Below are positions 4,058-40,447 of a DNA stretch of 42,146 nt, one piece after another. The stretch comes from an uncultured Rhodocyclaceae bacterium (GTDB lineage Bacteria > Pseudomonadota > Gammaproteobacteria > Burkholderiales > Ga0077523). The DNA is taken from the NCBI GenBank assembly GCA_964641005.1, contig CAZXJW010000002.1, positions 1 through 42,146 of the forward strand, given 5' to 3'. Positions within the stretch are counted from its first letter, which is position 1. The number at the start of each line of letters is the position of its first letter. Both the position numbers and the translations under genes were made by a program. The notes beneath the pieces are model-generated. The model did not search any database. It saw only the letters and a program-made list of their open reading frames with translations, and was not told the origin of the DNA.

Positions 4058-4917
4058 GGCTGCGCTTCACCAAGATGCAGGGCGCCGGCAACGACTTCGT
4101 GGTCGTGGACGCCACCCGCGCGCCCTTCGCGCTCGATGCCGCCGCCGTGCGCAGCCTCTGCGACCGCCGCTTCGGCGTGGGCTGCGACCAGGTGCTGGTG
4201 GTGGAGGCGCCGCGCACGCCCGGCACCGACTTCTACTACCGCATCTTCAACGCCGACGGCGGCGAGGTGCAGCAGTGCGGCAACGGCGCGCGCTGCTTCG
4301 CCCGCTTCGTGAGCGACCGTGGCCTGGCCACGGGCCGTGAGATCCGGGTGGAGACCGCCGCCGGCGTGATCGTGCCGCGCCTCGAGGCCGACGGACGCGT
4401 CACGGTGGACATGGGCGTGCCCGTGCTCGAACCCGCGCGCATCCCGTTCCTCGCGCCGGCCCGCGCGCTCACCTACCCGCTCGAGGTGGCCGGCGCGGTG
4501 CGCGAGATCGGCGCGGTGTCCATGGGCAACCCCCACGCCGTGCAGGTGGTGGCCGACACCGAGGCCGCACCCGTGGCCTCCGAGGGCCCGGCCATCGAGT
4601 CGCACCCGCGCTTTCCCGAACGCGTGAACGCCGGCTTCATGCAGGTGCTCGACCGCCACGCCATCCGGCTCCGGGTCTACGAGCGCGGCAGCGGCGAGAC
4701 CCTGGCCTGCGGCACGGGCGCCTGCGCCGCCGTGGTGTCGGGCATCCTTCGCGGCCTGCTCGACAGCCCGGTGCGCGTGGACACCCGCGGCGGCACCCTG
4801 TCCATCGCCTGGGCCGGCGAGGGCAGTCCCGTGTTCATGACCGGCCCCGCCGAGACCGTGTTCGAAGGCGAGATCGAACTTCCCGACCCGGCGGGCCACG
4901 CCCGGCAAGCCGCCTGA
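4054..4917 (+). CDS. dapF: Diaminopimelate epimerase
   Basis: The product begins [19 protein letters not shown] and contains both catalytic Cys contexts, CGNGARCF and ACGTGACA. The start overlaps the GNAT stop (ATGA at 4054-4057). Confidence 0.95.
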
Positions 4918-4937
4918 ACCCACACCCCAGGAACGCG

Positions 4938-5591
4938 ATGCAACCCGAACCCCAGGACGTGCTGCAGTACCTGCGCGACAACCCCGAGTTCTTCGACACC
5001 CACGCCGAGGCGCTGGCCGCGATCTTCGTGCCCCACCCGCACGGCGGCCGCGCGATTCCCATCGCCGAGCGCCAGATGGTCACGCTGCGCGACAAGAACC
5101 GCATGCTCGAGGACAAGCTCGCCGAACTGGTGCAGTTCGGCCAGGAGAACGACGCCATCATCGACCGGCTGCATCGCATCACCCTGGCGATGATGATGGC
5201 GCGCGACCTCGACGCCCTGCTCGCCTCGCTGTACTTCAACCTGCGCGAGGACTTCGCCGTGCCCCACGTGGCCATGCGGCTGTGGGCCGAGGGCGGCTGG
5301 CAGCGGCCCGAGTTCGGGCCCCTGAGCCCCGAGGCGCGTGTGTTCACGGAAAGCCTCACCAACCCCTACATCAGCCACCACGCCATGTTCGAGACCACCG
5401 AGTGGTTCGGCGAGGGTGGTCCCGGGCTTCGCTCCTTCGCCTACGTGGCGCTGCGCACCGAGCAGCCCTTCGGGCTTCTGGCCCTGGCCTCGGAGGACGC
5501 GCAGCGCTTCTACCCCGAGATGGGCACGCTCTACCTGAAGCGCCTCGGCGAGCTGGTGAGCGTGGCGCTGGCGCGCTTCCTGCGCCCCTGA
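4938..5591 (+). CDS. DUF484 family protein
   Basis: The 217-aa product begins VLQYLRDNPEFF. It occupies the classical position between dapF and xerC. Confidence 0.8.
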   Translation: MQPEPQDVLQYLRDNPEFFDTHAEALAAIFVPHPHGGRAIPIAERQMVTLRDKNRMLEDKLAELVQFGQENDAIIDRLHRITLAMMMARDLDALLASLYFNLREDFAVPHVAMRLWAEGGWQRPEFGPLSPEARVFTESLTNPYISHHAMFETTEWFGEGGPGLRSFAYVALRTEQPFGLLALASEDAQRFYPEMGTLYLKRLGELVSVALARFLRP

Positions 5592-5601
5592 CCACGGCCT
5601 C

Positions 5602-6528
5602 GTGACCCGACGCCCCGCGCCCGCGGCTGCCGACGAGATCCCGCCCCTCCAGGCGCAAAGGCTCGAGGGCTTCCTCGCCCACCTTTCCCGCGAGCGCCGG
5701 CTCTCGCCGCTCACCGTGGAGAACTACGGCCGCGACGTGCGCGACCTGCTGCGCCTGTCCGGCGCGCGCCCCGTGGAGTCCCTCGACGCCCACGACGTGC
5801 GCCGCTGCGTGGCACGGCTGCACGGTGAGGGCCTTTCCGGACGCAGCCTGGCTCGCAAGCTCTCGGCATGGCGCGGCTTCTTCGGCTGGCTCGGGCGAGA
5901 AGGCGTGCTGGCGCGCAATCCCGCCGCGGGCCTGAAGGCGCCGCGCTCGGCCAGGCGCCTGCCCTCCAGCCTCACGCCCGACCAGGCCGCGCGGCTGCTC
6001 GATGGCGTGGCGGAGAGCGACGACGAGCTCTGCGACCAGGCGCTGTTCGAACTGATCTACTCCTCCGGGCTGCGGCTCGCCGAAGTGGCGGGCCTCGATC
6101 CGGTGGACGTGGACCTGCGCGAGGGCACGGTGCGCGTCACCGGCAAGGGGTCGAAGACGCGCGTGGTGCCGCTGGGCTCGAAGGCCGCGATGGCGCTGGA
6201 GGCCTGGCTGCCCGCGCGGACGCGCCGCGCGGCGCCGGACGAGACCGCCCTGTTCGTGGGCGCGCGCGGCCGCCGCATCGCCCACCGCACGGTGCAGAAG
6301 CGCCTCGATGCGCTGGCCCTGCGCCGGGGGCTCGACACCAAGATCCATCCCCACGTGCTGCGCCACTCCTTCGCCTCCCACGTGCTGCAGTCCAGCGGCG
6401 ACCTGCGCGCCGTGCAGGAACTGCTGGGGCACGCATCCATCTCCACGACCCAGGTCTACACCCACCTGGATTTCCAGCACCTGGCCAGGGTCTACGACGC
6501 CGCGCATCCGCGGGCAAGGAAGAAATAG
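5602..6528 (+). CDS. xerC: Site-specific tyrosine recombinase XerC
   Basis: The start is GTG. The SAM-like N-terminal domain is present, along with the catalytic motifs GLRLAE, HVLRHSFASH and LGHASISTTQVYTH. The gene sits in the dapF-DUF484-xerC context. Confidence 0.93.
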   Translation: MTRRPAPAAADEIPPLQAQRLEGFLAHLSRERRLSPLTVENYGRDVRDLLRLSGARPVESLDAHDVRRCVARLHGEGLSGRSLARKLSAWRGFFGWLGREGVLARNPAAGLKAPRSARRLPSSLTPDQAARLLDGVAESDDELCDQALFELIYSSGLRLAEVAGLDPVDVDLREGTVRVTGKGSKTRVVPLGSKAAMALEAWLPARTRRAAPDETALFVGARGRRIAHRTVQKRLDALALRRGLDTKIHPHVLRHSFASHVLQSSGDLRAVQELLGHASISTTQVYTHLDFQHLARVYDAAHPRARKK

Positions 6529-8861: not shown

Positions 8862-10316
8862 ATGCAGAAGACCCTCGTCGCCACGGCCCTTGCCGCGGCG
8901 CTCGGAGCACCCGCCATCGCCGCGGCACAGAATGCCGACCTCGACCAGATCCGGCGCCAGATCCAGGAACTGCGCGACAACTACGAGAGCCGGATCAAGG
9001 CCCTCGAGGACCAGCTCAAGGCGGCGGAGACCTCCGCGCGCAAGGCCGAGGAATCGGCCGCCCAGGCCAGGACCGCCGCCCAGAAGGCCGAGTCCACCGC
9101 CGGCCGCGCCGAGCAGAGCGCCGGCCAGGCCGAGACCTCGGCGGTCCAGGCCGCCCAGCGGCCCGCTTCCCAGAACGCCTTCAACCCGGCCGTGTCGCTG
9201 ATCCTGAACGGCACCTGGGGCCGCTATGGCAACGATCCCACGGCGCAGATCACCGGCTTCCACGGCAGCGGCGCGAGCGAGATCCTGCCGCGGGGCGCCT
9301 CGCTGGGCGAGTCCGAGCTGTTCATCTCCGCCAACATCGACCCGCGCTTCCGCGGCGCCTTCCTGGCCGCGCTCACGCCCGAGAACGAGGTGGAGATCGA
9401 GGAGGCCTACTTCGAGACCCTGTCGCTGGGCAAGGGTGCCACGCTCAAGGGCGGCCGCTACTTCAGCGGCATCGGCTACTGGAACTCGGTGCACGCCCAC
9501 GCCTGGGACTTCACCGACGCAGCCCTGGTGCAGCGCGCCTTCCTGGGCAAGAACTACGGCGACGACGGCGTGCAGCTGCGCTGGGTGGCGCCGCTGCCGG
9601 TGTTCGTGCAACTCGGCGCGGAGATCGGCCGCGGCAAGGAGTTCGCCGGCATGGGCGAGGTGGAGCGCAACAGCAACGGCAAGAACTCGGAGGCGTTCTT
9701 CGCCAAGGTCGGCAGCGACATCGGCGTGTCGAACAGCTGGCAGCTCGGCGGCTCCTACCTGCGCCAGCGCACCACCAACGAGGGCGTGCCCATGTTCGAC
9801 TACGACGACCTCACGGGCCTGGTGAACGTGTTCGCCGGACGCCAGCGCGTGACGGGCGCGGACTTCGTGTACAAGTGGGCGCCCGACGGCAATCCGAGAT
9901 ACCGCAACTTCCGCTTCGTCACCGAGTACTACCAGCGCAAGCTCGACGGCGACTTCACCTTCGACACCGCGGGCCTGGCGCTCACGGATCCGGCCAACGC
10001 CAAGCAGTCGGGCTGGTTCGCACAGGGGGCCTACCAGTTCATGCCCTACTGGCGCGTGGGCCTGCGCTACGACCGCCTCTCGGCGGGCTCGGTGAACCTG
10101 AACGCGAACGCGGCGAATCTCGCGGTGCCCGACTTCAATCCCACCCGCTGGACGGCGATGGTCGACTGGAACCCCAGCGAGTTCAGCCGCATCCGCCTGC
10201 AGTACGCGCGCGACCGCTCCCGCCAGGACACCGGCACTGGCGAGACGATCTCCGACAACATCGTCTTCCTCCAGTACATCTACAGCCTCGGCGCCCACGG
10301 CGCGCACCGCTTCTAG
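8862..10316 (+). CDS. Outer-membrane beta-barrel (porin-like) protein with an N-terminal coiled coil
   Basis: The signal peptide is MQKTLVATALAAALGAPAIAAAQ. About 75 aa of heptad-like, Ala/Glu/Gln-rich sequence follow. The remainder has alternating beta-strand character and ends in a C-terminal Phe (...AHGAHRF). Confidence 0.7.
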   Translation: MQKTLVATALAAALGAPAIAAAQNADLDQIRRQIQELRDNYESRIKALEDQLKAAETSARKAEESAAQARTAAQKAESTAGRAEQSAGQAETSAVQAAQRPASQNAFNPAVSLILNGTWGRYGNDPTAQITGFHGSGASEILPRGASLGESELFISANIDPRFRGAFLAALTPENEVEIEEAYFETLSLGKGATLKGGRYFSGIGYWNSVHAHAWDFTDAALVQRAFLGKNYGDDGVQLRWVAPLPVFVQLGAEIGRGKEFAGMGEVERNSNGKNSEAFFAKVGSDIGVSNSWQLGGSYLRQRTTNEGVPMFDYDDLTGLVNVFAGRQRVTGADFVYKWAPDGNPRYRNFRFVTEYYQRKLDGDFTFDTAGLALTDPANAKQSGWFAQGAYQFMPYWRVGLRYDRLSAGSVNLNANAANLAVPDFNPTRWTAMVDWNPSEFSRIRLQYARDRSRQDTGTGETISDNIVFLQYIYSLGAHGAHRF

Positions 10317-10340: not shown

Positions 10341-11246
10341 ATGAAGACACTGATCCGCATCGCCCTCGCGGCATGCCTCGCGGCCGGCCTGCCGGCCCAT
10401 GCCACCCTCGAGGTGTTCGCCTGCTCGCCCGAGTGGGGTTCGCTGGTGAAGGAGATCGCCGGCGAGCGCGCCAGCGTGTACGTCGCCACCACCGCCACCC
10501 AGGACATCCACCGCATCCAGGCGCGGCCCAGCCTGATCGCCCGCGCGCGCATGGCCGACCTGGCCGTGTGCACCGGCGCCGAGCAGGAGGTGGGCTGGAT
10601 GCCCCTGGTGCGCAACCAGTCGGGCAACGACAAGATCCAGCTCGGCAGGCCTGGCTTCCTCGAGGTGGCCAACTACGTGCCGCGCATCGAGGTGCCCACG
10701 GTGATCGACCGCGCCATGGGCGACGTCCACCCGGTGGGCAACCCGCACATCCAGTGGGGACCGCGCCAGATCCAGCTCGGCGCCAACGAGCTCGCCAGGC
10801 GGCTGTCGCAGATCGACCCGGCCGGCGACGCCGAGTACAAGCGGCGGCTGGCCGACTTCACCGCCCGGTGGAGCGCGGCCACGGCACGCTGGCTCGAGAT
10901 GGGCGCGCCTCTCAAGGGCGTGGGCGTCATCCAGCACCACCGCAACTACTCCTACCTGTTCGAGTTCCTCGGCATGCGCCAGGTGGCCTCGCTGGAACCC
11001 AAGCCCGGTGTGGAGCCCACCTCCTCCCACCTCAACGACCTGGTGCAGCAGCAGCAGGCCGAGCCCGCCCGGCTGATCGTGCGCGCCTCCTATCACGCGC
11101 CCGCCGCCTCGGAGTGGCTGGCACAGCGCATCAAGGTCCCCGCCGTGATGCTGCCCGCCACCGTGGGCGGCACCGAGGCGTCCCGGGACCTGTTCGGGAT
11201 GTACGACGAGGCGATCCGCCGCATGCTGGCCGCGCTAGGATCGTGA
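10341..11246 (+). CDS. Periplasmic metal-binding protein, ZnuA/TroA (cluster 9) family, divergent
   Basis: The product has a signal peptide and His-containing ligand contexts (QDIHRIQARPS, HPVGNPHIQ). Its length and position ahead of the ATPase and permease fit a metal ABC importer. Confidence 0.75.
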   Translation: MKTLIRIALAACLAAGLPAHATLEVFACSPEWGSLVKEIAGERASVYVATTATQDIHRIQARPSLIARARMADLAVCTGAEQEVGWMPLVRNQSGNDKIQLGRPGFLEVANYVPRIEVPTVIDRAMGDVHPVGNPHIQWGPRQIQLGANELARRLSQIDPAGDAEYKRRLADFTARWSAATARWLEMGAPLKGVGVIQHHRNYSYLFEFLGMRQVASLEPKPGVEPTSSHLNDLVQQQQAEPARLIVRASYHAPAASEWLAQRIKVPAVMLPATVGGTEASRDLFGMYDEAIRRMLAALGS

Positions 11247-11250
11247 CGCC

Positions 11251-11823
11251 TTGCCCAGCGCCCCCCTCATCTCCCTGAATGCCGTCACGGCCGGCTACGA
11301 CCACCCCGTGGTGGGACCGGTCACGCTGGCCGTGCAACCGGGCGAGGTGGTGGCGCTGTGGGGCCCGAACGGATCGGGCAAGACCACGCTGCTGAACACG
11401 GTGGGCGGGAGCGCACGGGTGTTCTCCGGTGCCCTGGAGCGCAGTCCCGGGCTGAAGGTGGCGCACCAGCACCAGAATCCCCTGCCGCTGGACAACGTGC
11501 CGCTGTCGGGCCGGGAGCTGCTCGCGCTCACCCGGGCGGATCCCGCGAGCCTGCCGGAGCCCGCCCGTCCCCTGCTCGCGCGCCGCCTCTCCGAGCTCTC
11601 CGGCGGCCAGCTGCAGTTCCTGCAGGTCTGGGCGAGCCTCGCCTCGCCCGCCGCGCTGGTGCTCCTGGACGAGCCCACCAACAACGTCGACCCCGGCGGG
11701 GTGGCGCTGCTGGAGGCCGCGCTGAAGGCGCGCGATCCGGCGCGAGCCTTCCTGGTGGTGAGCCACGACCGCCGCTTCGTGGACGCGGTGTGCACGCGAA
11801 TGGTGGAGCTGCCGAAGCGATGA
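11251..11823 (+). CDS. ABC transporter ATP-binding protein (metal-importer type), minimal 190 aa
   Basis: Walker A (GPNGSGKTT), signature (LSGGQLQ), Walker B (LVLLDEPTNNVD) and H-loop (VVSHD) motifs are all present. The apparent start is TTG at 11251. Confidence 0.8.
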   Translation: MPSAPLISLNAVTAGYDHPVVGPVTLAVQPGEVVALWGPNGSGKTTLLNTVGGSARVFSGALERSPGLKVAHQHQNPLPLDNVPLSGRELLALTRADPASLPEPARPLLARRLSELSGGQLQFLQVWASLASPAALVLLDEPTNNVDPGGVALLEAALKARDPARAFLVVSHDRRFVDAVCTRMVELPKR

Positions 11824-12617
11824 GCGGCCTGGGCATCCACGACCCGCTGTTCCTGGTGCCCTTCTCCACCGGGCTGCTGCTCTCGGCGCTGCTGCCTCTG
11901 CTGGGCATGTACCTGCGGCTGCGCGAGGAGTGGCTGGCCGCGCTCGCCTTCGCGCAGCTGGCCGCGGCCGGCTCGCTGGCAGCGGCCATCCGCGAACTGC
12001 CCGTGCTGCTGGGCAGCTTCGGCGCGGCGGGCATCGCCGCTGCCGCCAAGTCCTGGCTGTCCCGCTCGGGCAACAACGGCTACGCGCTGCTGATGGTGGG
12101 CGCCTGGGGGGCGGCCATCCTGATGCTCGCCAACGCGCCCTTCGCCGACCATCTCGGCCACGCGCTGTTCGACGGCCAGATCTACTTCACCGGCACCGCA
12201 CACCTGTGGAGCGTGGCGGGCTTCGCCGTGGCGGCCCTGGCCACGCTGCGGTGGCTGTCGCGCAAGCTGCTGCTCGAGCGCATGTTCCCCGACTTCTTCC
12301 GCGCCAGCGGCCTGTCCCCGCAGCGCTACCACCTGCTGTTCGACCTGCTGGTGGCCGCGGGCATCGCCCTGGCCACCGCCACCATCGGCGTGATGGCCGC
12401 CTTCAGCCTCGTGTTCGTGCCCTCGATGGTGGCGTGGCAATGGGGCCGCAGCTGGAAGAGGGCGCTGGCGGTCTCGGTGGCCACCGGCGTGGCGAGCTAC
12501 GTGGCCGCCTTCGAGCTGGCGCTGCACTACGACCAGCCCTTCGGCCCGGTGCTGGTGCTGTGCATGGTGGCCGCGGCGGCCCTTTCCTGGGCGGCCGGAG
12601 GCCTGACCCGCCTCTGA
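11820..12617 (+). CDS. Metal ABC transporter permease (ZnuB-like)
   Basis: The ATG at 11820 overlaps the ATPase stop (ATGA). The 265-aa product is polytopic and hydrophobic. The upstream part of ORF 11358..12617 is shadow. Confidence 0.75.
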   Translation: MSGLGIHDPLFLVPFSTGLLLSALLPLLGMYLRLREEWLAALAFAQLAAAGSLAAAIRELPVLLGSFGAAGIAAAAKSWLSRSGNNGYALLMVGAWGAAILMLANAPFADHLGHALFDGQIYFTGTAHLWSVAGFAVAALATLRWLSRKLLLERMFPDFFRASGLSPQRYHLLFDLLVAAGIALATATIGVMAAFSLVFVPSMVAWQWGRSWKRALAVSVATGVASYVAAFELALHYDQPFGPVLVLCMVAAAALSWAAGGLTRL

Positions 12618-18404: not shown

Positions 18405-19331
18405 TCAATAGCCGGCGGAACGATCCACCACCCCCCGCGGCGCCTCGCCCGCCTCGAGCCGCCGCAGGTTCTCGATCACCTGCGCGGCCGCCTCGTCGGC
18501 CAGGGTGACCCCGGCCACGTGGGGCGTGACAACCACGCGCGGGTGGCTCCAGAAGGCATGCCCCGGCGCCAGGGGCTCGTCCGCGAAGACGTCCAGCATC
18601 GCCCCGCCCACCTGGCCGCTGTCCAGGGCGGCGAGCAGGTCGGCCTCCACCACGTGGGCGCCGCGTGCCACGTTGACCAGGCATGCGCCGGGCTGGAGGC
18701 GGGCGAAGAACCGTGCGTCCAGCAGGCCGCGGGTTGCCGGCGTGAGGGGCAGGAAGTTCACCAGGATGCGCGCGCGCCGCTGCAGGGCCGCGAGCCCGTC
18801 CGCGCCGTCGAGGCAGTCCACGCCGGGGATGCGCCGAGGCGTGCGGCTCCAGCCGCACACCGGAAAGCCCGCGGCCGCCACCAGCCGCGCGGCCTCGCCG
18901 CCCAGCACGCCCAGGCCCAGAACGCCCACCACGCTGTCCTCCAGGCGATTGGGCTCGAGGATGCGCCACTGACGCTCGCGCTGCTGCTGCACGTACTCGG
19001 GCATGCGCCGGTGGAAATGCAGCACCCCGTAGAGCGCGTACTCCGCCATCTGGCGCGCGAGGCCGCCGTCCACCAGGCGCGCCACGGGCACGTCGGGCAG
19101 GTCCGGGTCTTCCAGCAGGGCGTCCACGCCCGCGCCCAGGGACAGGATGGCGCGCAGGTTGGGAAACTGCCGGTGCCAGCCGTTGGGCGGCTTCCAGACC
19201 AGCGTGTAGCGCACCTCGGCGGGTGGGCCGGTGTCGGGCCAGGCGTGGAAGGCCAGTCCGGGCACGGCGCGCGCGAGGACCTCGCGCCACGGACCGGGAT
19301 CATCGGTGCGGCTGTAGAAGACGATGCTCAT
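18405..19331 (-). CDS. D-2-hydroxyacid dehydrogenase family, glyoxylate/hydroxypyruvate reductase A-like
   Basis: The NAD fold motif GVLGLGVLG and the catalytic contexts NVARG...E and TPHVAG are present. The product is 308 aa. Confidence 0.85.
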   Translation of the reverse strand: MSIVFYSRTDDPGPWREVLARAVPGLAFHAWPDTGPPAEVRYTLVWKPPNGWHRQFPNLRAILSLGAGVDALLEDPDLPDVPVARLVDGGLARQMAEYALYGVLHFHRRMPEYVQQQRERQWRILEPNRLEDSVVGVLGLGVLGGEAARLVAAAGFPVCGWSRTPRRIPGVDCLDGADGLAALQRRARILVNFLPLTPATRGLLDARFFARLQPGACLVNVARGAHVVEADLLAALDSGQVGGAMLDVFADEPLAPGHAFWSHPRVVVTPHVAGVTLADEAAAQVIENLRRLEAGEAPRGVVDRSAGY

Positions 19332-19490
19332 GGATCGGGTGTGGTGACCGTTCCACGGGAGCGTACATTCGGGTGGCCGCCGCCGGAAGTGCGCGATTGC
19401 GGCGGTGCCCTGCGCCGTTTAACCTCGTCGCTCGTCCTCCGGCTCCGGCCGGCGAAACCCATCCATTCCCATGCCCCGAGGAGACCCCCC

Positions 19491-19859
19491 ATGGCCGGCA
19501 CCGGCAAGCTCTGCCTGAATCTCACCTGGTCCAGCAACGACACCGACAAGGCCACCGTGGCCTTCGTGGTGGCCAACGCCGCCGTCGCCTCGGCCCAGGA
19601 CACGCTGGTCTTCCTGTCCATCGAGGGCGTGCGCCTGTCCCAGAAGGGCTTCGCCGATTCCATCCACGAGGAAGGCTTCGCGCCCCTCAAGGAGCTCATG
19701 GACAACTTCGTCAAGGCGGGCGGCAAGATCTGGGTGTGCTCGCCGTGCTTCAAGAAGCGCAAGCTCGACGAGGCTGCGCTCATCGAAGGCGCCACCATCG
19801 TGGGGGGAGCAAAGCTGGTGGAGTTCCTCTCCGACGGCACGCCCTGCATCTCCTACTGA
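19491..19859 (+). CDS. DsrE/DsrF-like sulfur-relay family protein (DrsE_2/COG2210-like)
   Basis: The 122-aa product has a GAGGAG RBS at 19478-19483. Its alpha/beta pattern carries conserved Cys contexts (KIWVCSPCFKKR, and a C-terminal Cys in TPCISY). Confidence 0.7.
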   Translation: MAGTGKLCLNLTWSSNDTDKATVAFVVANAAVASAQDTLVFLSIEGVRLSQKGFADSIHEEGFAPLKELMDNFVKAGGKIWVCSPCFKKRKLDEAALIEGATIVGGAKLVEFLSDGTPCISY

Positions 19860-19879
19860 ACGACCGGGCAGGATCCTCC

Positions 19880-21433
19880 ATGGCCGCGCCTTCGCCGCAT
19901 GTCCCCGACGCGAGCTTCGACGGGGGCGACCTCGACTGCGGCAACGGCCTGCTGCTGCTGATCCGGCGCCACATCGATCCGCTGCCGCGCGGCGGGCTGC
20001 TGGAGATCCTCTCGAGCGAGGGCTCGGTTCGCGAGGACCTGCCCGCGTGGTGCCGTCTCACGGGCAACGAACTCGTGGCGACCGGGCCGCGCGAAGGGCG
20101 GGTGACGTCCTTCCTCGTGTGCAAGGGCAGCCTCTCCGAGCGCGCGCCGCGCGGGATGCCTGCCGCCACCGGCGGGAGCGCGTCGAACAGCGCCCGGCCC
20201 ATCGGCCAGTCCGCCGTGGCCGTCACCATTCCCGCCCGCCTGCCCGATCCCGCGCCTGCCCCCGCGATCCCGCCGCTGGCCGTGATGGGCATCGGCAGCT
20301 GGCCGCGCCCACGCTGGCTGCTGCAGGCACTGCACCAGCGCATGGAAGGGCGGCTGCCGGAGGCGGAGTTCGAGGCCACCGCCGACGATGCCGTGCGGCT
20401 GGCCGTGGAGGCCCAGCTGCGCGCCGGGGTGGACGTGCTCACCGACGGCGAGCAGCGCCGCGACAGCTACTCGAGCTTCGTGGGCGGTCGCCTCGACAAC
20501 TGCCAGCTGATCCCGCTGACCGACCTGCTGCCGCTTGTGGACGACCCCGAGGACTTCGAGCGCGAGCTGCGCGCCCTGGACGTGCCCGCCGGCGAGGTGC
20601 GCCACCCCGCGGTGTTCGGTCCCCTGGGCCGCAGCCGGCCGCTGGCGGTGCACGAACTGTCGTTCGTCCGGTCGCTGTCGCCGAAGCCGGTGAAGATCGC
20701 CCTGCCCGGCCCCTACCTGCTCACCCGCACCATGTGGATGGAGTGCATCTCCGACAACGCCTACGCCTCGCGCGAGCACATCGCCACGGACATCGTGCGC
20801 GTGCTGCGCGAGGAGCTGGCCTTCCTGCTGGCGGATGGCGCCGCCCTGGTGCAGTTCGACGAGCCGGTGCTCTCGGAGGTGGTGTTCACGGGCGCGAAGA
20901 CCCAGCGCAGCTTCATGTGCGGCGCGCTCTCGGAGAAGGGCGACCCGGCCTCGGAACTCGCCTTCGCCCGCGACCTGCTCAACGCCGTGGTGGAGGGCTT
21001 CCCGAGCGACCGCACCGCCATGCACATGTGCCGCGGCAACTGGACGCCCGACGAATCCACGTGCCTGCACGGTGACTACGCCCCGCTGGTGCCCACGCTG
21101 GCGCAGATGAAGGTCGGGACCTGCTCGCTGGAGCTGTGCACGCCGCGCGCCGGCGAGATGGAGATCCTGCGCGGCCTGCCCGAAGACCGGCGCATCGGCG
21201 TGGGCGTGGTCAACCAGAAGCACGCCCGCGTGGAGAGCGTCGACGAGGTGCTCGCCCTCGCGGAGCGCGCGGTGGCGCTGTTCGGCGCGGACCGCGTGCT
21301 GCTCAACCCCGACTGCGGCTTTGCCACCTTCGCCGACAACCCGGTGGCCTCCGCGGCCGTGGCGGAGGCCAAGCTCGCGGCCATGGCGAAGGCCGCGGTG
21401 ATCCTGCGCGAGCGCCACGCCGCGGCTGCGTGA
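19880..21433 (+). CDS. Fusion protein: N-terminal TusA/SirA-like domain, Pro/Ala linker, then C-terminal cobalamin-independent methionine synthase catalytic (core-MetE, Meth_synt_2-like) domain
   Basis: A single 517-aa frame runs without a stop. Residues 10-85 resemble TusA (GGDLDCGNGLLLL...LEILSSEGSVREDLPAWCRLTGNELV). Residues 136-517 carry MetE-like motifs: IGSWPRP, DGEQRRD, QFDEP, and the Zn ligands HMC and NPDCG. An AGGA RBS lies upstream of the ATG. Confidence 0.8.
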   Translation: MAAPSPHVPDASFDGGDLDCGNGLLLLIRRHIDPLPRGGLLEILSSEGSVREDLPAWCRLTGNELVATGPREGRVTSFLVCKGSLSERAPRGMPAATGGSASNSARPIGQSAVAVTIPARLPDPAPAPAIPPLAVMGIGSWPRPRWLLQALHQRMEGRLPEAEFEATADDAVRLAVEAQLRAGVDVLTDGEQRRDSYSSFVGGRLDNCQLIPLTDLLPLVDDPEDFERELRALDVPAGEVRHPAVFGPLGRSRPLAVHELSFVRSLSPKPVKIALPGPYLLTRTMWMECISDNAYASREHIATDIVRVLREELAFLLADGAALVQFDEPVLSEVVFTGAKTQRSFMCGALSEKGDPASELAFARDLLNAVVEGFPSDRTAMHMCRGNWTPDESTCLHGDYAPLVPTLAQMKVGTCSLELCTPRAGEMEILRGLPEDRRIGVGVVNQKHARVESVDEVLALAERAVALFGADRVLLNPDCGFATFADNPVASAAVAEAKLAAMAKAAVILRERHAAAA

Positions 21434-37059: not shown

Positions 37060-37893
37060 TCAGGCCGCGCCGGCCACGCGCAGTTCGCGCACCAGGAAGG
37101 CGCTGCCCGTGCGGTAGGGGGCGAAACTCACCGCGTGGTGGAAGCCGCGCAGCGCGAACAGCGCGGCCACCTCGGCGGCGAGGGCCTCGCGGCGGGTGCG
37201 CTCGGTGCAGGCTAGGGTGTCGGCGTCGAGCTCGATCACCGCGCCGGCGGCGCGCACGCGGCAACGCACGGTGCGCGGCGACAGGGCTGCATCCACCAGC
37301 CGCTCGGCGGCGTGCACGGCGGCCAGCATGTCCGGGTCGATGGCGATGCCGGTCTCGATGCGGCTCGACAGGCAGGGCGAGGACGGCAGCTCGGCCACGC
37401 CGCCCAGGCCCAGGTCGCGGGCCAGCGCGCGCACGCCGGCCTTGGCGATGCCAGCCTCCACGAACGGGTGGCGCACGCCGTGCTCGCGCGCGGCCTCCAG
37501 GCCGGGGCGGTACTCGCCCAGGTCGTCGGTGTTGGTGCCGGACACCACCTGCGCGCCGGTGCGCGGCACGATGGCGCCATACAGGCTGGTCTTGCAGAAG
37601 AAGCAGCGGTTCACCGGATTGGCGCGGTACTCCTCGCGCGCGAACTCGCCGGCATCGATGACCTCGAGCGACCAGCCTTCGCGCGCCGCGAGCTCGCGGG
37701 TGCGCTCGGTGGCCTCCGGCGGCACGGCCGGCGATGTGGCGTGGAACATGGCCACGCGCCCGGGCAGGTGGCGATGGGCGAAGCTCGCCAGGGTGAGGCT
37801 GTCCACGCCACCGCTCACGGCCACGGCGACATCGCCCATGCCGGAGAGCACGCGCTCCAGCGCCGCGGCGTGGGCCTCGTTCGCGGTGCTCAC
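37060..37893 (-). CDS. larE: LarE, ATP-dependent sulfur transferase for nickel-pincer cofactor synthesis
   Basis: The PP-loop SGGVDS is present, together with CFFC (Cys97 and Cys100) and SPCLSSR (Cys174). The GTG start at 37893 overlaps the larC stop (GTGA). Confidence 0.88.
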   Translation of the reverse strand: MSTANEAHAAALERVLSGMGDVAVAVSGGVDSLTLASFAHRHLPGRVAMFHATSPAVPPEATERTRELAAREGWSLEVIDAGEFAREEYRANPVNRCFFCKTSLYGAIVPRTGAQVVSGTNTDDLGEYRPGLEAAREHGVRHPFVEAGIAKAGVRALARDLGLGGVAELPSSPCLSSRIETGIAIDPDMLAAVHAAERLVDAALSPRTVRCRVRAAGAVIELDADTLACTERTRREALAAEVAALFALRGFHHAVSFAPYRTGSAFLVRELRVAGAA

Positions 37894-39098
37894 TTCAAGC
37901 CCTCGTCCTCGGCGGCGCGGCGCAGCGCGGCCCGGCCGGCGAGCCCCTCCACCTGCGCGGTGTCGTCGCTCTCGGCCTTGGCGGTGGCGGCCTGCGGCCG
38001 CTGCACCACCTTCACGCGCACGGCGTGGTTGCCCACCAGCACCATGCGAAGGTCGCGCGGCAGGGTCTTGCGATGCACCACCTGGTAGCGCAATCCGATG
38101 GTGGCGGTCTCGAGGAAGCAGGCGTCGGTGACCGCCTGCAACTGCGCGGGGTCCGCCAGCACCTGGATGGCGGCGGCGATGCGGCCCTTCTTGCCGAACA
38201 CCGGGCTCTGCAGCACGTCGAGCACCGCCGGATGGCTGCGCAGCCGGTCCAGCGCGATGGCGAGATCCTCGGGCGTCTGGTCGTCCACCTCGAAGGCGAT
38301 CACGGCCACGGGCGCATCGGCGGCGTCGGAGTCGGTGTCCACGGGTTCGAAGCACACCACCCGCAGCACATTGGAAAGCCCGGGGAAGACCTTGGTCCCG
38401 AAGCCGTGGCCGGTGCGGCCGAGCTTCAGGGCGCCGCTGGGGCGCGACTGGGTGCAGCCCAGGTGGCGGACGATGGCGGCACCCGTGGGCGTCACGCGCT
38501 CGCCGGCCACGCCGTCGTCGGCGAAGGCGTAGCCCTCGAGCAGCATGGCCGCCGCCGGCACCGGCACCGGCAGCTTGCCGTGAGCCGTCTTCACGAACCC
38601 CGAGCCCAGGGGCAGCGTGCCGATGGACCACGACTGCGCCCCCGTGGCGTGGACCAGCCATGCGGCGCCCACGATGTCGGCGATGGAGTCCCACTCGCCC
38701 AGCTCGTGGAAGGACACCAGTTCGGTGGGCTTGCCGTGGATGCGGCCCTCCACCTCGGCCAGGCGCGTGAAGATGTCCACCGCGCGGCGCTTCACCTCGG
38801 CATCGAGGGAGGAGGAGAGGAGGTGGGTGCGGATGTCGGCGAAGTCGCGATGGGCGTGGTGGTGATGGTGGTGGGCGTGGACGTAGCCGGGCGCCGGGAT
38901 GTCCACCCGGAAGCGGCTGCCGGTGAGGGCGTGGTCGGCATGTGCCTCGAAGCGGCATTCGACGCTGGCGGGCAGCCCCGCCGCGCGCACGGCGGCCAGC
39001 ATGCCCTCGCGCAGGTGCGGGAAGGCGTCGGTCATGGCGGCGATGAACATGTCGCCCGCCACGCCGCCCACGGCGTCGAGGTGGATGTGGGAGACCAC
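37890..39098 (-). CDS. larC: LarC, nickel insertion protein (pyridinium-3,5-bisthiocarboxylic acid mononucleotide nickel chelatase)
   Basis: From the GTG start at 39098 the product reads VVSHIHLDAVGGVAGDMFIAA. It contains the His tract HAHHHHHHAH and is 402 aa in a single frame. Confidence 0.88.
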   Translation of the reverse strand: MVSHIHLDAVGGVAGDMFIAAMTDAFPHLREGMLAAVRAAGLPASVECRFEAHADHALTGSRFRVDIPAPGYVHAHHHHHHAHRDFADIRTHLLSSSLDAEVKRRAVDIFTRLAEVEGRIHGKPTELVSFHELGEWDSIADIVGAAWLVHATGAQSWSIGTLPLGSGFVKTAHGKLPVPVPAAAMLLEGYAFADDGVAGERVTPTGAAIVRHLGCTQSRPSGALKLGRTGHGFGTKVFPGLSNVLRVVCFEPVDTDSDAADAPVAVIAFEVDDQTPEDLAIALDRLRSHPAVLDVLQSPVFGKKGRIAAAIQVLADPAQLQAVTDACFLETATIGLRYQVVHRKTLPRDLRMVLVGNHAVRVKVVQRPQAATAKAESDDTAQVEGLAGRAALRRAAEDEGLK

Positions 39099-39121
39099 GG
39101 GAGTGGCTGCCGGCGCGCCGC

Positions 39122-40447
39122 TCAGGCCTCGGCGTGGGCGTGGGCCTTGCCGAGCATGGGGTAGAGCGTGCCCTTCGCGTCGAACTTGAACGCCTCGGGC
39201 TCGCCCAGCACCTCGAACAGCGAGGGGTTGGCCTTCACCATGGCCATCATGGGCTCGGAGACGTGCAGGTCGATGATCTGCAGCGTGTTGGGGATGCGCA
39301 CGATCCTCGTGTCCTGGGGCTTCACGCGCACCACCGTCTTGACCGCCAGCTGGATGGCCTCGCGGTCGGTGTTCATGATGATGGGGATCGCCGCGCCGTC
39401 GAGATAGGTGGAGGTGATCACGTTGGCGTAGGTCTTGGCGATGTCCATGTCCTTGTAGAGGCGCATGGTGATGACGTCGGCGGAACCCAGCCCGGTGGCG
39501 TTGCCGTGGGTCTCGGGCGTGAGGCCGAGCACCGCGATCTTCTTCACGAAGGGCTTCATGTTCCACTCGACGTTGCGGCAGTTGCGCCCGGTGATGTTGG
39601 GGTCCATGCCCGAGCCGGAGATGTTCTTGCCGATCTTCTCCACCACCAGCACGTCGATCTCGTCGAACTGCAGGCGCGCCATCATGTCCTTGGCCTTCTG
39701 CTGCAGCACCGGCTCGCGCTCGAAGATGGCCGGGCCGGGCACGGCCTCGATGATCGCAGTCTCGTCGGCGGCGTTCTCCACCATGGCCACGCCCAGCAGC
39801 ACGTTCTTCTTCGCCATGATCAGGTGAGCGGCCTCGGGCAGCAGCCGGCCGAAGGCATCCATGCCCTCGGTGTGCAGCTCGGTGGCGCCGATGATCTTGC
39901 CCATGCCGATGGTCATCATCTTGACGATGCCCGACTCGATGGGGGCGCGGAAGTTGGTGTGCGGCTTGACGCGGCACACCAGCACCACGCCGTCGGCGGC
40001 CGCCGCGAGCTTGTCCATGTAGACCGGCATGCCCGAGGCGAGGCGGCCCAGCTCCACCACCTCCATCTGGGAGTGCACCGGGCAGCCCATGGTCCCCTCG
40101 GTGATGCCGTAGCCCTCGAGCACCTCGCGCTGGCCCTCGGCGGTGGCCCCGCCGTGGCTGCCCATGGCGGGGAAGATGAAGGGCTTCGCGCCCAGCGCCT
40201 TGAGATCGGCGATCACCTGCTTCACGCACTCGGCGATGTTGGCGATGCCGCGGCTGCCGCAGCCCACGGCGATGCTCATGCCGGGCTTGACCTGGGCGCG
40301 CACCTCGGGACGCTGGAACTGGGCAGCCACCTCGGCGGCCACGTCCTTCACGCGCGGGGTCTGGAACTTCTGGCGCACGTGCACCATGCGCGGCAGGGGA
40401 ACGTCGAGTCCGCCCGCGATGTTGGTTTCGATGCGATCGCCGATCAT
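39122..40447 (-). CDS. LarA-family (DUF2088, lactate racemase-like) nickel-pincer-dependent racemase/epimerase homolog; divergent, substrate unknown
   Basis: The 441-aa product has a GGAGG RBS. Candidate catalytic and tether contexts are AMGSHGG and VKPHTNFRAPIESGIVK...ELH. It lies immediately upstream of larC-larE-larB on the same strand. Confidence 0.7.
   Translation of the reverse strand: MIGDRIETNIAGGLDVPLPRMVHVRQKFQTPRVKDVAAEVAAQFQRPEVRAQVKPGMSIAVGCGSRGIANIAECVKQVIADLKALGAKPFIFPAMGSHGGATAEGQREVLEGYGITEGTMGCPVHSQMEVVELGRLASGMPVYMDKLAAAADGVVLVCRVKPHTNFRAPIESGIVKMMTIGMGKIIGATELHTEGMDAFGRLLPEAAHLIMAKKNVLLGVAMVENAADETAIIEAVPGPAIFEREPVLQQKAKDMMARLQFDEIDVLVVEKIGKNISGSGMDPNITGRNCRNVEWNMKPFVKKIAVLGLTPETHGNATGLGSADVITMRLYKDMDIAKTYANVITSTYLDGAAIPIIMNTDREAIQLAVKTVVRVKPQDTRIVRIPNTLQIIDLHVSEPMMAMVKANPSLFEVLGEPEAFKFDAKGTLYPMLGKAHAHAEA

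Follow-up and report, generated by a model that had tools for sequence, protein, structure and literature searches.

A TusA-like domain tethered to a core methionine synthase barrel, with a DsrE-like partner, in a widespread bacterial gene cassette

Why should an enzyme of the methionine synthase superfamily carry, in the place of its folate-binding half, a protein domain of the sulfur-relay type? The question is raised by a stretch of 42,146 nucleotides from an uncultured Rhodocyclaceae bacterium (contig CAZXJW010000002.1 of the GenBank assembly GCA_964641005.1; the whole stretch is hereafter called the window, and its G+C content is 72%). In this window, a gene for a 122-residue DsrE-like protein is followed 20 nt later by an open reading frame (ORF) for a 517-residue protein, which joins a TusA-like domain, a Pro/Ala-rich linker and a barrel akin to the catalytic half of the cobalamin-independent methionine synthase MetE. 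An initial annotation had described this pair of genes with exact coordinates and lengths, and had seen in it a possible thiol methyltransferase module linked to persulfide trafficking.

The answer that we favour, tentatively and with a confidence somewhat short of even, is that the fusion is a relay-coupled, homocysteine-alkylating core methionine synthase, in which the tethered TusA-like domain would shuttle a cysteine-bound sulfur or selenium group between the DsrE-like protein and the zinc site of the barrel. What the data show is the identity of the domains, the residues expected to catalyse and bind, the presence of a tether and the conservation of the partnership. We see in this widespread family a core methionine synthase whose partner module is of a new type, and its cassette probably marks an unknown link of sulfur (or selenium) carrier proteins to methionine chemistry. 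Full-text literature searches, with most subscription journals outside their coverage, gave no account of a TusA::MetE fusion or of a DsrE-TusA-MetE association, in agreement with the initial annotation, which knew of no described fusion of this kind.

The barrel and the thiol it would bind

The C-terminal part of the fusion protein matches the Pfam family Meth_synt_2 (PF01717) with an E-value of 6.8e-31 and 108 bits, the gathering score being 21. The family Meth_synt_1 yields merely 17 bits, and this inside the C-terminal barrel, so that the folate-binding half of MetE is indeed absent, as had been claimed at the outset. Among solved structures, the best match by sequence is 3RPD (E=5e-24, 88 bits, about 23% identity), i.e. 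the core methionine synthase MesD (Price et al., PMC7857596), and the MetE of T. maritima comes next. A Foldseek search with the AlphaFold model of the fusion returned C-terminal barrels of MetE (1XPG, E=1e-16) and gave 3RPD a TM-score, normalised to the target, of 0.74. On the evidence of the profile scores and of the modelled fold, the barrel is assigned to the Meth_synt_2/MetE catalytic-domain superfamily.

The motifs by which the barrel had been recognised are all in place: GSWPRP, within IGSWPRP, at residues 139-144, DGEQRRD at 189-195, QFDEP at 325-329, H382-x-C384 and NPDC479G. Alignment to T. maritima MetE and MesD predicts H382, C384, E418 and C479 as zinc ligands, those of the E. coli enzyme being H641, C643, E665 and C726, and it places S140, E191 and D327 on Ser22, Glu73 and Asp188 of 3RPD, which are the equivalents of the homocysteine contacts S433, E484 and D599 in E. 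coli (PMC7857596). Neither the four predicted ligands nor the three homocysteine residues vary in two alignments, one of 49 and the other of 81 homologs. The barrel is best read as a zinc enzyme that binds the thiol of an alpha-amino acid, i.e. homocysteine: since the triad that holds the alpha-amino and alpha-carboxylate groups in MetE and MesD is invariant here, the zinc-bound thiol would be homocysteine and not a protein persulfide.

This residue pattern bears directly on the methylation of persulfides by the fusion, which the initial annotation had in mind and which is now disfavoured. In such a reaction, zinc would activate a sulfane sulfur or selenium carried on Cys20 of the TusA-like domain, which would be methylated to Cys-S-S-CH3 and released as methanethiol or methylselenol, for detoxification or volatilisation. 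DsrE and TusA proteins are persulfide carriers, the TusA cysteine is here tethered beside a zinc thiol-alkylating site, and the sel genes found near the cassette in some genomes make a selenium link plausible. But the invariant Ser/Glu/Asp triad for the amino-acid part of homocysteine would be superfluous for a protein persulfide, no methyl donor is apparent, and the known selenium and sulfide methylases depend on S-adenosylmethionine (SAM) and have other folds. We regard a persulfide or perselenide methyltransferase as improbable.

On the other hand, the fusion falls outside the curated families. The canonical MetE model TIGR01371 gives 80 bits against a cutoff of 930, and the two-barrel architecture is lacking; the best methionine synthase match in NCBIfam, PRK04326, gives 163 bits against 406, and the protein is not assignable to MesA, MesB or MesC, the core synthases that depend on corrinoid proteins. 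It also stays below the values for MesD (88 bits to 3RPD, against at least 390; 114 bits to PRK09121, against a cutoff of 392). Membership in the curated methionine synthase, TusA, DsrE2 and YedF equivalogs was tried and rejected, every score being below its cutoff or no match being obtained. The architecture proves to be common, with relatives in at least 487 species, and its assigned functions are limited to generic MetE or TusA names. Thousands of database entries bear the name '5-methyltetrahydropteroyltriglutamate--homocysteine methyltransferase', which is very probably wrong, since they lack the folate-binding half.

The barrel also has conserved features of its own. A highly conserved insert at residues 195-246 follows the DGEQRRD motif and contains C208, a second insert at residues 333-366 contains the invariant C347, and the segment 'MWMEC289' is likewise invariant. 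Within this segment, W286 aligns with W539 of T. maritima MetE, which we take to be the tryptophan that contacts the pterin. The two inserts could form a leaving-group pocket, as would be needed by a homocysteine synthase independent of pyridoxal phosphate (PLP). In this alternative, the amino-acid pocket would bind an activated homoserine, a zinc-activated persulfide on the TusA-like domain would attack the gamma carbon, and the CxxC pair of the DsrE-like protein would release homocysteine from the resulting TusA-S-S-homocysteine, which would account for both a sulfane-sulfur relay and a resolving dithiol. There is no precedent for such chemistry in the MetE superfamily, the MetE site would place the electrophile on the far side of the sulfur and not along the side chain, and no homoserine-activating gene is linked to the cassette; we consider this alternative highly improbable.

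The tethered TusA-like domain, its partner and their cassette

Against the Pfam family TusA (PF01206), the N-terminal domain of the fusion scores 25.2 bits (E=1.5e-5), which is under the gathering score of 28.6. Its TusA-like identity is nevertheless sound, judging from sequence and model together, because the NCBIfam TusA model PRK00299 aligns with residues 9-70, most fusion orthologs bear a precomputed PF01206 match, the stand-alone TusA paralogs of related loci, 35-44% identical to the domain, pass at 31-44 bits, the modelled topology is right and both cysteines are in place. The AlphaFold model has the order beta-alpha-beta-alpha-beta-beta (strand 11-16, helix 22-32, strand 40-45, helix 48-61, strand 64-70, strand 76-81), with Cys20 before helix 1, at the position of the TusA persulfide. 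In a set of 81 sequences, the conservation amounts to 99% for Cys20 and to 95% for Cys58. The two cysteines lie in the motifs 'DLDC20GNGLL' and 'DLPAWC58RLTGNELVA', whose counterparts in E. coli TusA are presumably 'GLRC19PEPVM' and 'IPGFC56TFMEHELVA'. The C-P-x-P motif is replaced by C-G-N-G around Cys20 and by C-G-D/E-L in the stand-alone paralog, the cysteine itself being kept, and the TusA proteins reach 21-45 bits against the NCBIfam equivalog cutoff of 78.

The linker that follows was correctly noticed in the initial annotation, which made it a little too long (about 50 residues): it has 43 residues in the window protein, 47% of them Pro or Ala. Across the 81 homologs it varies from 30 to 73 residues, with about 40% Pro+Ala and 29% identity, while the identity reaches 74% in the TusA-like domain and 75% in the barrel, the carrier domain being as constrained as the enzyme domain. 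The AlphaFold model predicts the linker to be disordered (predicted local distance difference test, pLDDT, below 50 at residues 92-112). By analogy with lipoyl and acyl carrier protein (ACP) domains, a constrained domain on a variable Pro/Ala linker would be the signature of a swinging-arm carrier.

The 122-residue protein matches the DsrE family (PF02635) with E=3.6e-15 and 56.6 bits, the gathering score being 22.7, and its assignment to the DsrE/DsrF family rests on this profile match and on a conserved active-site cysteine. The three assignments first made from the sequence, DsrE-like, TusA-like and Meth_synt_2, have consequently all held up, the TusA-like one with the backing just described. 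The DsrE-like protein has a C83-S-P-C86 motif, with both cysteines invariant in 72/72 DsrE homologs; its closest solved relative is 3MC3, a DsrE/DsrF-like protein of S. solfataricus (E=5.6e-7), with a cysteine of which Cys83 aligns. The DsrE2 model NF047629 gives 18.8 bits against a cutoff of 210, and the DsrE2, DsrEFH and TusBCD equivalogs of NCBIfam yielded no further match.

The partnership of the two genes extends far beyond the window. For the counts of gene context we used a pool of 162 homologous loci (labelled L001 and so on), and the neighbours were counted in the 102 of them whose upstream flank is 3.5 kb or longer. In 98/102 loci, the fusion has a DsrE homolog upstream, which makes the neighbour a real functional partner, and a stand-alone TusA gene stands upstream of DsrE in 92/102. 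The cassette usually begins with the stand-alone TusA gene, which is followed by DsrE, by an uptake module where there is one, and by the fusion. The same reading frame recurs in more than 160 loci, and the ORF listing and translation of the window run through without internal stop, so that the fusion is genuine and neither a stop between the domains nor a sequencing artefact has to be feared. The pair proposed as a module at the outset is thus upheld, as the reduced form of a three-gene cassette of TusA, DsrE and fusion, often with an uptake module.

The interval from DsrE to the fusion is arranged in three ways. In 43 loci the two genes are directly adjacent, as they are in the window. In 36/102 loci, a PhnD/PhnE/PhnC-type ATP-binding cassette (ABC) importer is placed between them; its PhnE and PhnC exceed the NCBIfam cutoffs, and its PhnD-type substrate-binding protein weakly resembles a putative selenate binder (77 bits). 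In 21/102 loci, the inserted genes encode a Cys-rich membrane protein of 168-180 residues and a secreted protein of about 510-520 residues; no Pfam or NCBIfam family was found for either (168- and 522-residue representatives). The membrane protein has a 'C-x-x-C-x-A-P' transmembrane motif and the secreted protein a C-terminal anchor (L081, 5920-8004; L087, 6865-8949). The cassette of L081 is followed by genes for a thioredoxin-fold protein and a TonB-dependent receptor. In the importer module of a Reyranella locus (L173), an IS110-family transposase gene (4278-5210, minus strand) has become inserted between the genes of the PhnD-type binding protein and of the permease. Several loci of Planctomycetota, Acidobacteriota and Paracoccus have a transglutaminase-like gene upstream of TusA, and no further broadly conserved neighbour of the cassette was found.

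The spread of the fusion is considerable. A scan with one genome per GTDB species detected relatives in at least 487 species representatives, and a protein search gave more than 120 clusters at 71-90% identity, all of about 505-520 residues. Conservation on this scale shows that the ORFs are no product of chance. At least 10 phyla are involved, with Burkholderiales, Alphaproteobacteria, Planctomycetota, Acidobacteriota, Binatia, Cyanobacteria, Chloroflexota and others among the higher taxa. The species scan includes Duganella, Massilia, Paraburkholderia, Polynucleobacter, Gallionellaceae and Nitrospirillum, as well as Planctomycetota, Acidobacteriota, Binatia, Rokubacteria, Bdellovibrionales and Pedosphaera, and look-ups added an Oculatellaceae cyanobacterium, Dehalococcoidia, Reyranella and the Paracoccus chromids. 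Because the fusions remain 64-76% identical across phyla amid unrelated flanking genes, the cassette is apparently a self-contained module that has spread horizontally. Some records of metagenome-assembled genomes (MAGs) with a high-GC, Burkholderiales-like cassette (L004, L011, L027, L044) are titled Streptomyces, Klebsiella or Bifidobacterium, and are probably taxonomic mislabels of co-assembled bins.

In an exhaustive search with the barrel only, which gave 3,938 representatives at E<=1e-3, fused forms extend down to 48% identity (P0126, with 2 clusters on short contigs, too rare for an analysis of context). A fused paralog of 503 residues and 49% identity, P0131, keeps the TusA motifs and has lost the zinc ligands and C347 (H-x-C changed to an L-x-L context, PDCG to TDAG); it is presumably a non-catalytic derivative. 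Among unfused relatives, the closest clade is the P0129 group of Chloroflexota, annotated as 'cobalamin-independent methionine synthase II family protein' and showing 45% identity along the entire barrel. It shares with the fusion the insert after DGEQRRD, the conserved tryptophan and the pairing with small Cys proteins, but it is unfused, lacks C289 and has OsmC or rhodanese as neighbours in the place of TusA and DsrE: an OsmC-family gene adjoins in 5/5 loci (L085, L086, L168, L169, L170) and a rhodanese gene precedes in 2/5. Since this unfused sister clade adjoins OsmC and rhodanese genes, the pairing of this part of the MetE superfamily with thiol or persulfide proteins is recurrent and not confined to the fusion. 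L085 also has a ComA-like gene and two aspartase/fumarase-family genes, reminiscent of bacterial coenzyme M biosynthesis.

Could the barrel then be an ordinary core synthase using a soluble donor, such as methyl-H4folate (methyltetrahydrofolate) monoglutamate or S-methylmethionine, with TusA and DsrE as mere accessories which would guard the oxidation-prone zinc-thiolate site and the additional cysteines against oxidation, or regulate the enzyme in response to sulfane sulfur? The presence of W286 at the position of the presumed pterin-contacting tryptophan of MetE would fit, the E. coli MetE is inactivated by oxidation, and the sister clade has redox proteins as neighbours (OsmC, CMD, a thioredoxin-fold protein, and TrxB in Paracoccus). 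But it is hard to see why a purely protective module should be attached through a swinging-arm linker and stay at 74% identity with a near-invariant cysteine at the catalytic position, and the uptake module inside the cassette argues for a dedicated substrate. We find this alternative unlikely, though by no means far-fetched.

The features of the window copy are collected in Table 1. A GAGGAG ribosome-binding site lies 7-8 nt 5' of the DsrE-like ATG, no terminator-like site was found between the DsrE-like gene and the fusion, and the two genes probably form one operon. A promoter and terminator consensus scan of the operon was uninformative, with no sigma-70 consensus in 19332-19490. No stand-alone TusA ORF was found across the 42 kb of the window. 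Because the syntenic locus L001, with the same neighbours GlgP and dehydrogenase, has some 360 bp encoding TusA (5881-6242) where the window has 159 bp devoid of it, the window copy is, by this comparison, a reduced cassette whose lineage has lost the stand-alone TusA. The Binatia loci L066, L069, L071 and L074 are likewise devoid of it.

Table 1. Cassette features and adjoining elements in the window
Feature	Position	Strand	Basis or remark
2-hydroxyacid dehydrogenase gene	18405-19331	-	Divergent from the DsrE-like gene
Divergent intergenic region	19332-19490		159 bp, from the 2-hydroxyacid dehydrogenase gene to the DsrE-like gene; slot of the stand-alone TusA in close relatives
DsrE-family protein, 122 aa	19491-19859	+	Pfam PF02635
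C83 and C86 of the DsrE-like protein	19737-19739, 19746-19748	+	C83-S-P-C86 motif
Spacer, 20 nt, with AGGA ribosome-binding site	19860-19879	+	From the DsrE-like gene to the fusion ORF
Fusion ORF, 517 aa: TusA-like domain, linker, core-MetE domain	19880-21433	+	ORF listing, Pfam, NCBIfam, homologs
TusA-like carrier domain, residues 10-88	19907-20143	+	Profile alignments, predicted fold, conserved Cys
Cys20 and Cys58 of the fusion	19937-19939, 20051-20053	+	Conserved in homologs
Pro/Ala-rich linker, residues 89-131	20144-20272	+	Low identity, variable length, low pLDDT
Core-MetE (Meth_synt_2) triosephosphate isomerase (TIM) barrel domain, residues 132-517	20273-21430	+	Pfam PF01717, structure matches
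Predicted zinc ligands H382, C384, E418, C479	21023-21025, 21029-21031, 21131-21133, 21314-21316	+	Alignment to T. maritima MetE and MesD
Predicted homocysteine-binding residues S140, E191, D327	20297-20299, 20450-20452, 20858-20860	+	Alignment to Ser22, Glu73, Asp188 of 3RPD
Family-specific conserved residues C208, W286, C289, C347	C289: 20744-20746; C347: 20918-20920	+	Homolog alignments

The other genes of the window are ordinary chromosomal ones (metK, dapF, znuABC, hslVU, and genes for an alpha-glucan phosphorylase, a MacB-type exporter and a branched-chain amino-acid ABC transporter). Two further observations concern them. A 484-residue ORF with strong coding signal and no Pfam family (8862-10316, plus strand) lies directly 5' of the znuA/znuC/znuB-type zinc uptake operon (10341-12617). 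A LarC-type nickel-insertion protein is encoded beside a protein with a LarA N-terminal domain (37890-40447, minus strand); these are components of the nickel-pincer cofactor system, with no relation to the fusion.

Selenium genes around the cassette

In a minority of genomes, the cassette is accompanied by genes of selenocysteine (Sec) synthesis. On the chromids of Paracoccus ferrooxidans and P. versutus, it lies amid genes for a SufS-family desulfurase and a UGSC-family selenoprotein, selA and trxB; this selA is bona fide (TIGR00474, 565 bits against a cutoff of 268), and a tRNA-Sec gene follows some 6 kb further. In L011, selA, selB and the tRNA-Sec gene (selC) are found 3 kb downstream of the cassette, and in L105/L112 and L111, selB and tRNA-Sec are in the flanks. 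In L078, a tRNA-Sec gene adjoins an integrase gene. In L065, a Planctomycetota MAG, a 93-nt tRNA-Sec-like gene with a GCA (Cys) anticodon (5855-5947, plus strand) is inserted between DsrE and the fusion; ARAGORN calls it a tRNA-Cys, the Rfam family RF01852 gives it 44.3 bits (E=1e-7), just below the gathering score of 47, and neither selA nor selB was found in the flanks of this locus. In all, Sec genes are near the cassette in about 7 independent lineages among the 162 loci, whose flanks total about 1.9 Mb. A rough estimate of the number expected by chance is at most about 0.5 such loci, even with one selC per 4 Mb in every host.

Several observations stand beside these counts. The UGSC gene of P. 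ferrooxidans pFER4 (CP038202.1; L087, 2508-3077, minus strand) is split in the annotation, at an in-frame TGA ('VGLAN*GSCTSW'), into the two hypothetical proteins E3U26_23345 and E3U26_23350, and no UGSC selenoprotein was found in the loci outside Paracoccus or in the window. The candidacy of selA, trxB and SufS as universal neighbours was rejected, these genes being confined to the Paracoccus-like group and L011, and a long 'tRNA-???' of L042, considered as a second tRNA-Sec-like gene, was a false positive. Directly 3' of the cassette of L111 (11507-13667, minus strand) are genes for a GcvH-like lipoate-binding protein, a second DsrE-family protein and a lipoate-protein ligase, such as are characteristic of sulfur oxidation of the sHdr type; selB, tRNA-Sec and fdhE come next.

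That the cassette recurs next to selA, selB and tRNA-Sec is a hint that it may help to supply selenium. The bacterial protein YedF consists of a TusA-like and a DsrE-like domain with a CGXC motif, and has been tied to selenium metabolism by comparative genomics (PMC5322559). The cassette could therefore be imagined as a selenium-trafficking module in which TusA and the DsrE protein with its CxxC motif, as a split YedF, would carry selenium, and the fusion would convert selenomethionine, selenohomocysteine or methylselenol so that selenium reaches SelD, or would make selenomethionine purposely. The Paracoccus selenium island and the other loci with Sec genes, far more numerous than expected, the domain pair shared with YedF and the likeness of the PhnD-type protein to a putative selenate binder would all be in its favour. 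But more than 90% of the loci, the window included, have no selenium genes in their flanks, and the YedF model TIGR03527 has no match at E<0.1 with either the DsrE-like protein or the fusion. In the 162 loci, no catalytic cysteine of TusA, DsrE or the fusion is replaced by Sec (in-frame TGA). Furthermore, the sel genes of L105 and L111 belong to formate dehydrogenase clusters and, because the tRNA-Sec gene of L078 adjoins an integrase gene, some of the adjacency may reflect island structure. A module devoted to selenium is, to our mind, rather improbable.

A tentative relay and the systems it resembles

The relay that we favour combines these elements as follows. The barrel would bind L-homocysteine, or a close analogue such as selenohomocysteine, and its thiolate would be activated on the zinc for alkylation. 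The TusA-like domain stands in the place of the folate-binding barrel of MetE and would act as a swinging-arm carrier on its variable linker. A group containing sulfur or selenium, covalently attached to Cys20, would be exchanged with the CxxC motif of the DsrE-like protein and, in most genomes, also with the stand-alone TusA; Cys20 would present this group to, or remove it from, the zinc/homocysteine site with its extra cysteines C289 and C347. Homocysteine as the acceptor, the visit of Cys20 to the active site and the nature of the carried group are the parts of the scheme that we infer.

What could the carried group be? In the specific version that we prefer, itself quite improbable as it stands, Cys20 would carry a methyl-chalcogenide (Cys-S-S-CH3 or Cys-S-Se-CH3) as the methyl donor. 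The group would form from methanethiol, methylselenol or dimethyl disulfide via the CxxC disulfide of the DsrE-like protein, the zinc-activated thiolate of homocysteine would take the methyl to give methionine, and the leftover protein persulfide or perselenide would be returned to DsrE and TusA to be assimilated, or passed on to SelD. This version would explain the carrier, the dithiol/disulfide partner, the redox neighbours of the sister clade and the selenium adjacency.

A number of points weigh against the relay or against this version of it. The methyl transfer is chemically demanding, since a thiolate normally attacks the sulfur of Cys-S-S-CH3 and not the methyl carbon. W286, kept at the tryptophan position discussed above, makes a direct use of methylfolate conceivable. 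The AlphaFold model is moderate (pLDDT 74.6), and the conserved insert 195-246 is poorly modelled. No riboswitch or other Rfam element (SAM, B12) was found upstream in the window or in 7 loci, and no signal of a methionine regulon or MetR-type regulator was found either, which also counts against a synthase with a soluble donor. The window is devoid of both the stand-alone TusA and the uptake module, so that the copy found there may function in another way or with less efficiency. Core-MetE homologs of aerobic marine bacteria do not necessarily supply methionine, since they failed, in one reported case at least, to rescue methionine auxotrophy (PMC12478193).

The methyl source of the folate-independent core methionine synthases in aerobes is an open question, and so is the donor of MesD/MesX. 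The fusion family, present in hundreds of soil, freshwater and wastewater species, makes this question directly testable because the presumptive partners are encoded alongside, one partner domain being tethered. Among the hosts that can be cultured are Paracoccus versutus, Duganella, Massilia, Paraburkholderia and Nitrospirillum amazonense. If the relay exists, it would be the first in which TusA and DsrE cysteines feed an amino-acid-forming zinc alkyltransferase. If, in addition, the methyl-chalcogenide version holds, the cassette would be a protein-mediated methanethiol/methylselenol demethylase coupled to methionine synthesis, and would bring a new class of methyl donor for methionine synthases as well as a candidate enzyme of methylselenol demethylation, for which, to our knowledge, none has been identified so far.

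Among known systems, MesD is one of the closest. It is a core methionine synthase of aerobic bacteria, depending on a partner protein rather than on folate or B12 (Price et al. 2021, PMC7857596), and the characterised core methionine synthases receive the methyl group from protein-bound carriers and not from folate (PMC7857596). Like MesD, the fusion has a single MetE-type barrel of about 350-390 residues without folate domain, the same His/Cys/Glu/Cys zinc site and Ser/Glu/Asp homocysteine contacts, and its hosts are mostly aerobic heterotrophs. It differs by the inserts 195-246 and 333-366, with C289 and C347 as family features, by its N-terminal TusA-like domain, and by its partners, which are DsrE and TusA instead of MesX: no DUF1852 (MesX) gene was found among the window neighbours or the recurrent neighbours of the cassette, and no gene for a corrinoid protein beside the cassette in the loci with annotated neighbours or among the recurrent ones. 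With the C-terminal barrel of canonical MetE (T. maritima 1XPG), the fusion shares the fold, the zinc ligands, the homocysteine residues and the tryptophan W286/W539, but the N-terminal Meth_synt_1 barrel is missing and the TusA-like domain stands in its place.

The cassette also resembles the TusA-DsrE relays (TusA/TusBCD, DsrEFH, and the DsrE3-TusA of sHdr; PMC11094781), which are encoded by adjacent genes, each product with its active-site cysteine. The presumed acceptor differs, being a MetE-type enzyme instead of tRNA thiolation, DsrC or sHdr, and so do the TusA motif, C-G-x-G/L instead of C-P-x-P, and the DsrE protein with its CxxC pair. YedF has the same two folds, a DsrE CxxC and a partial genomic association with selenocysteine genes; in the cassette, the two folds are on separate genes and a MetE domain is attached. 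The closest architectural precedent for a carrier-tethered core MetE comes from protists: in the MetE-fusion of Phaeocystis and others, a phosphopantetheine-binding domain takes the place of the folate barrel before the core-MetE barrel (PMC10861871). That fusion is eukaryotic and its ACP-like carrier is joined to polyketide synthase (PKS) and CzcO oxidoreductase domains, without TusA or DsrE, whereas the bacterial fusion would entrust the same position to a cysteine carrier of the sulfur-relay type.

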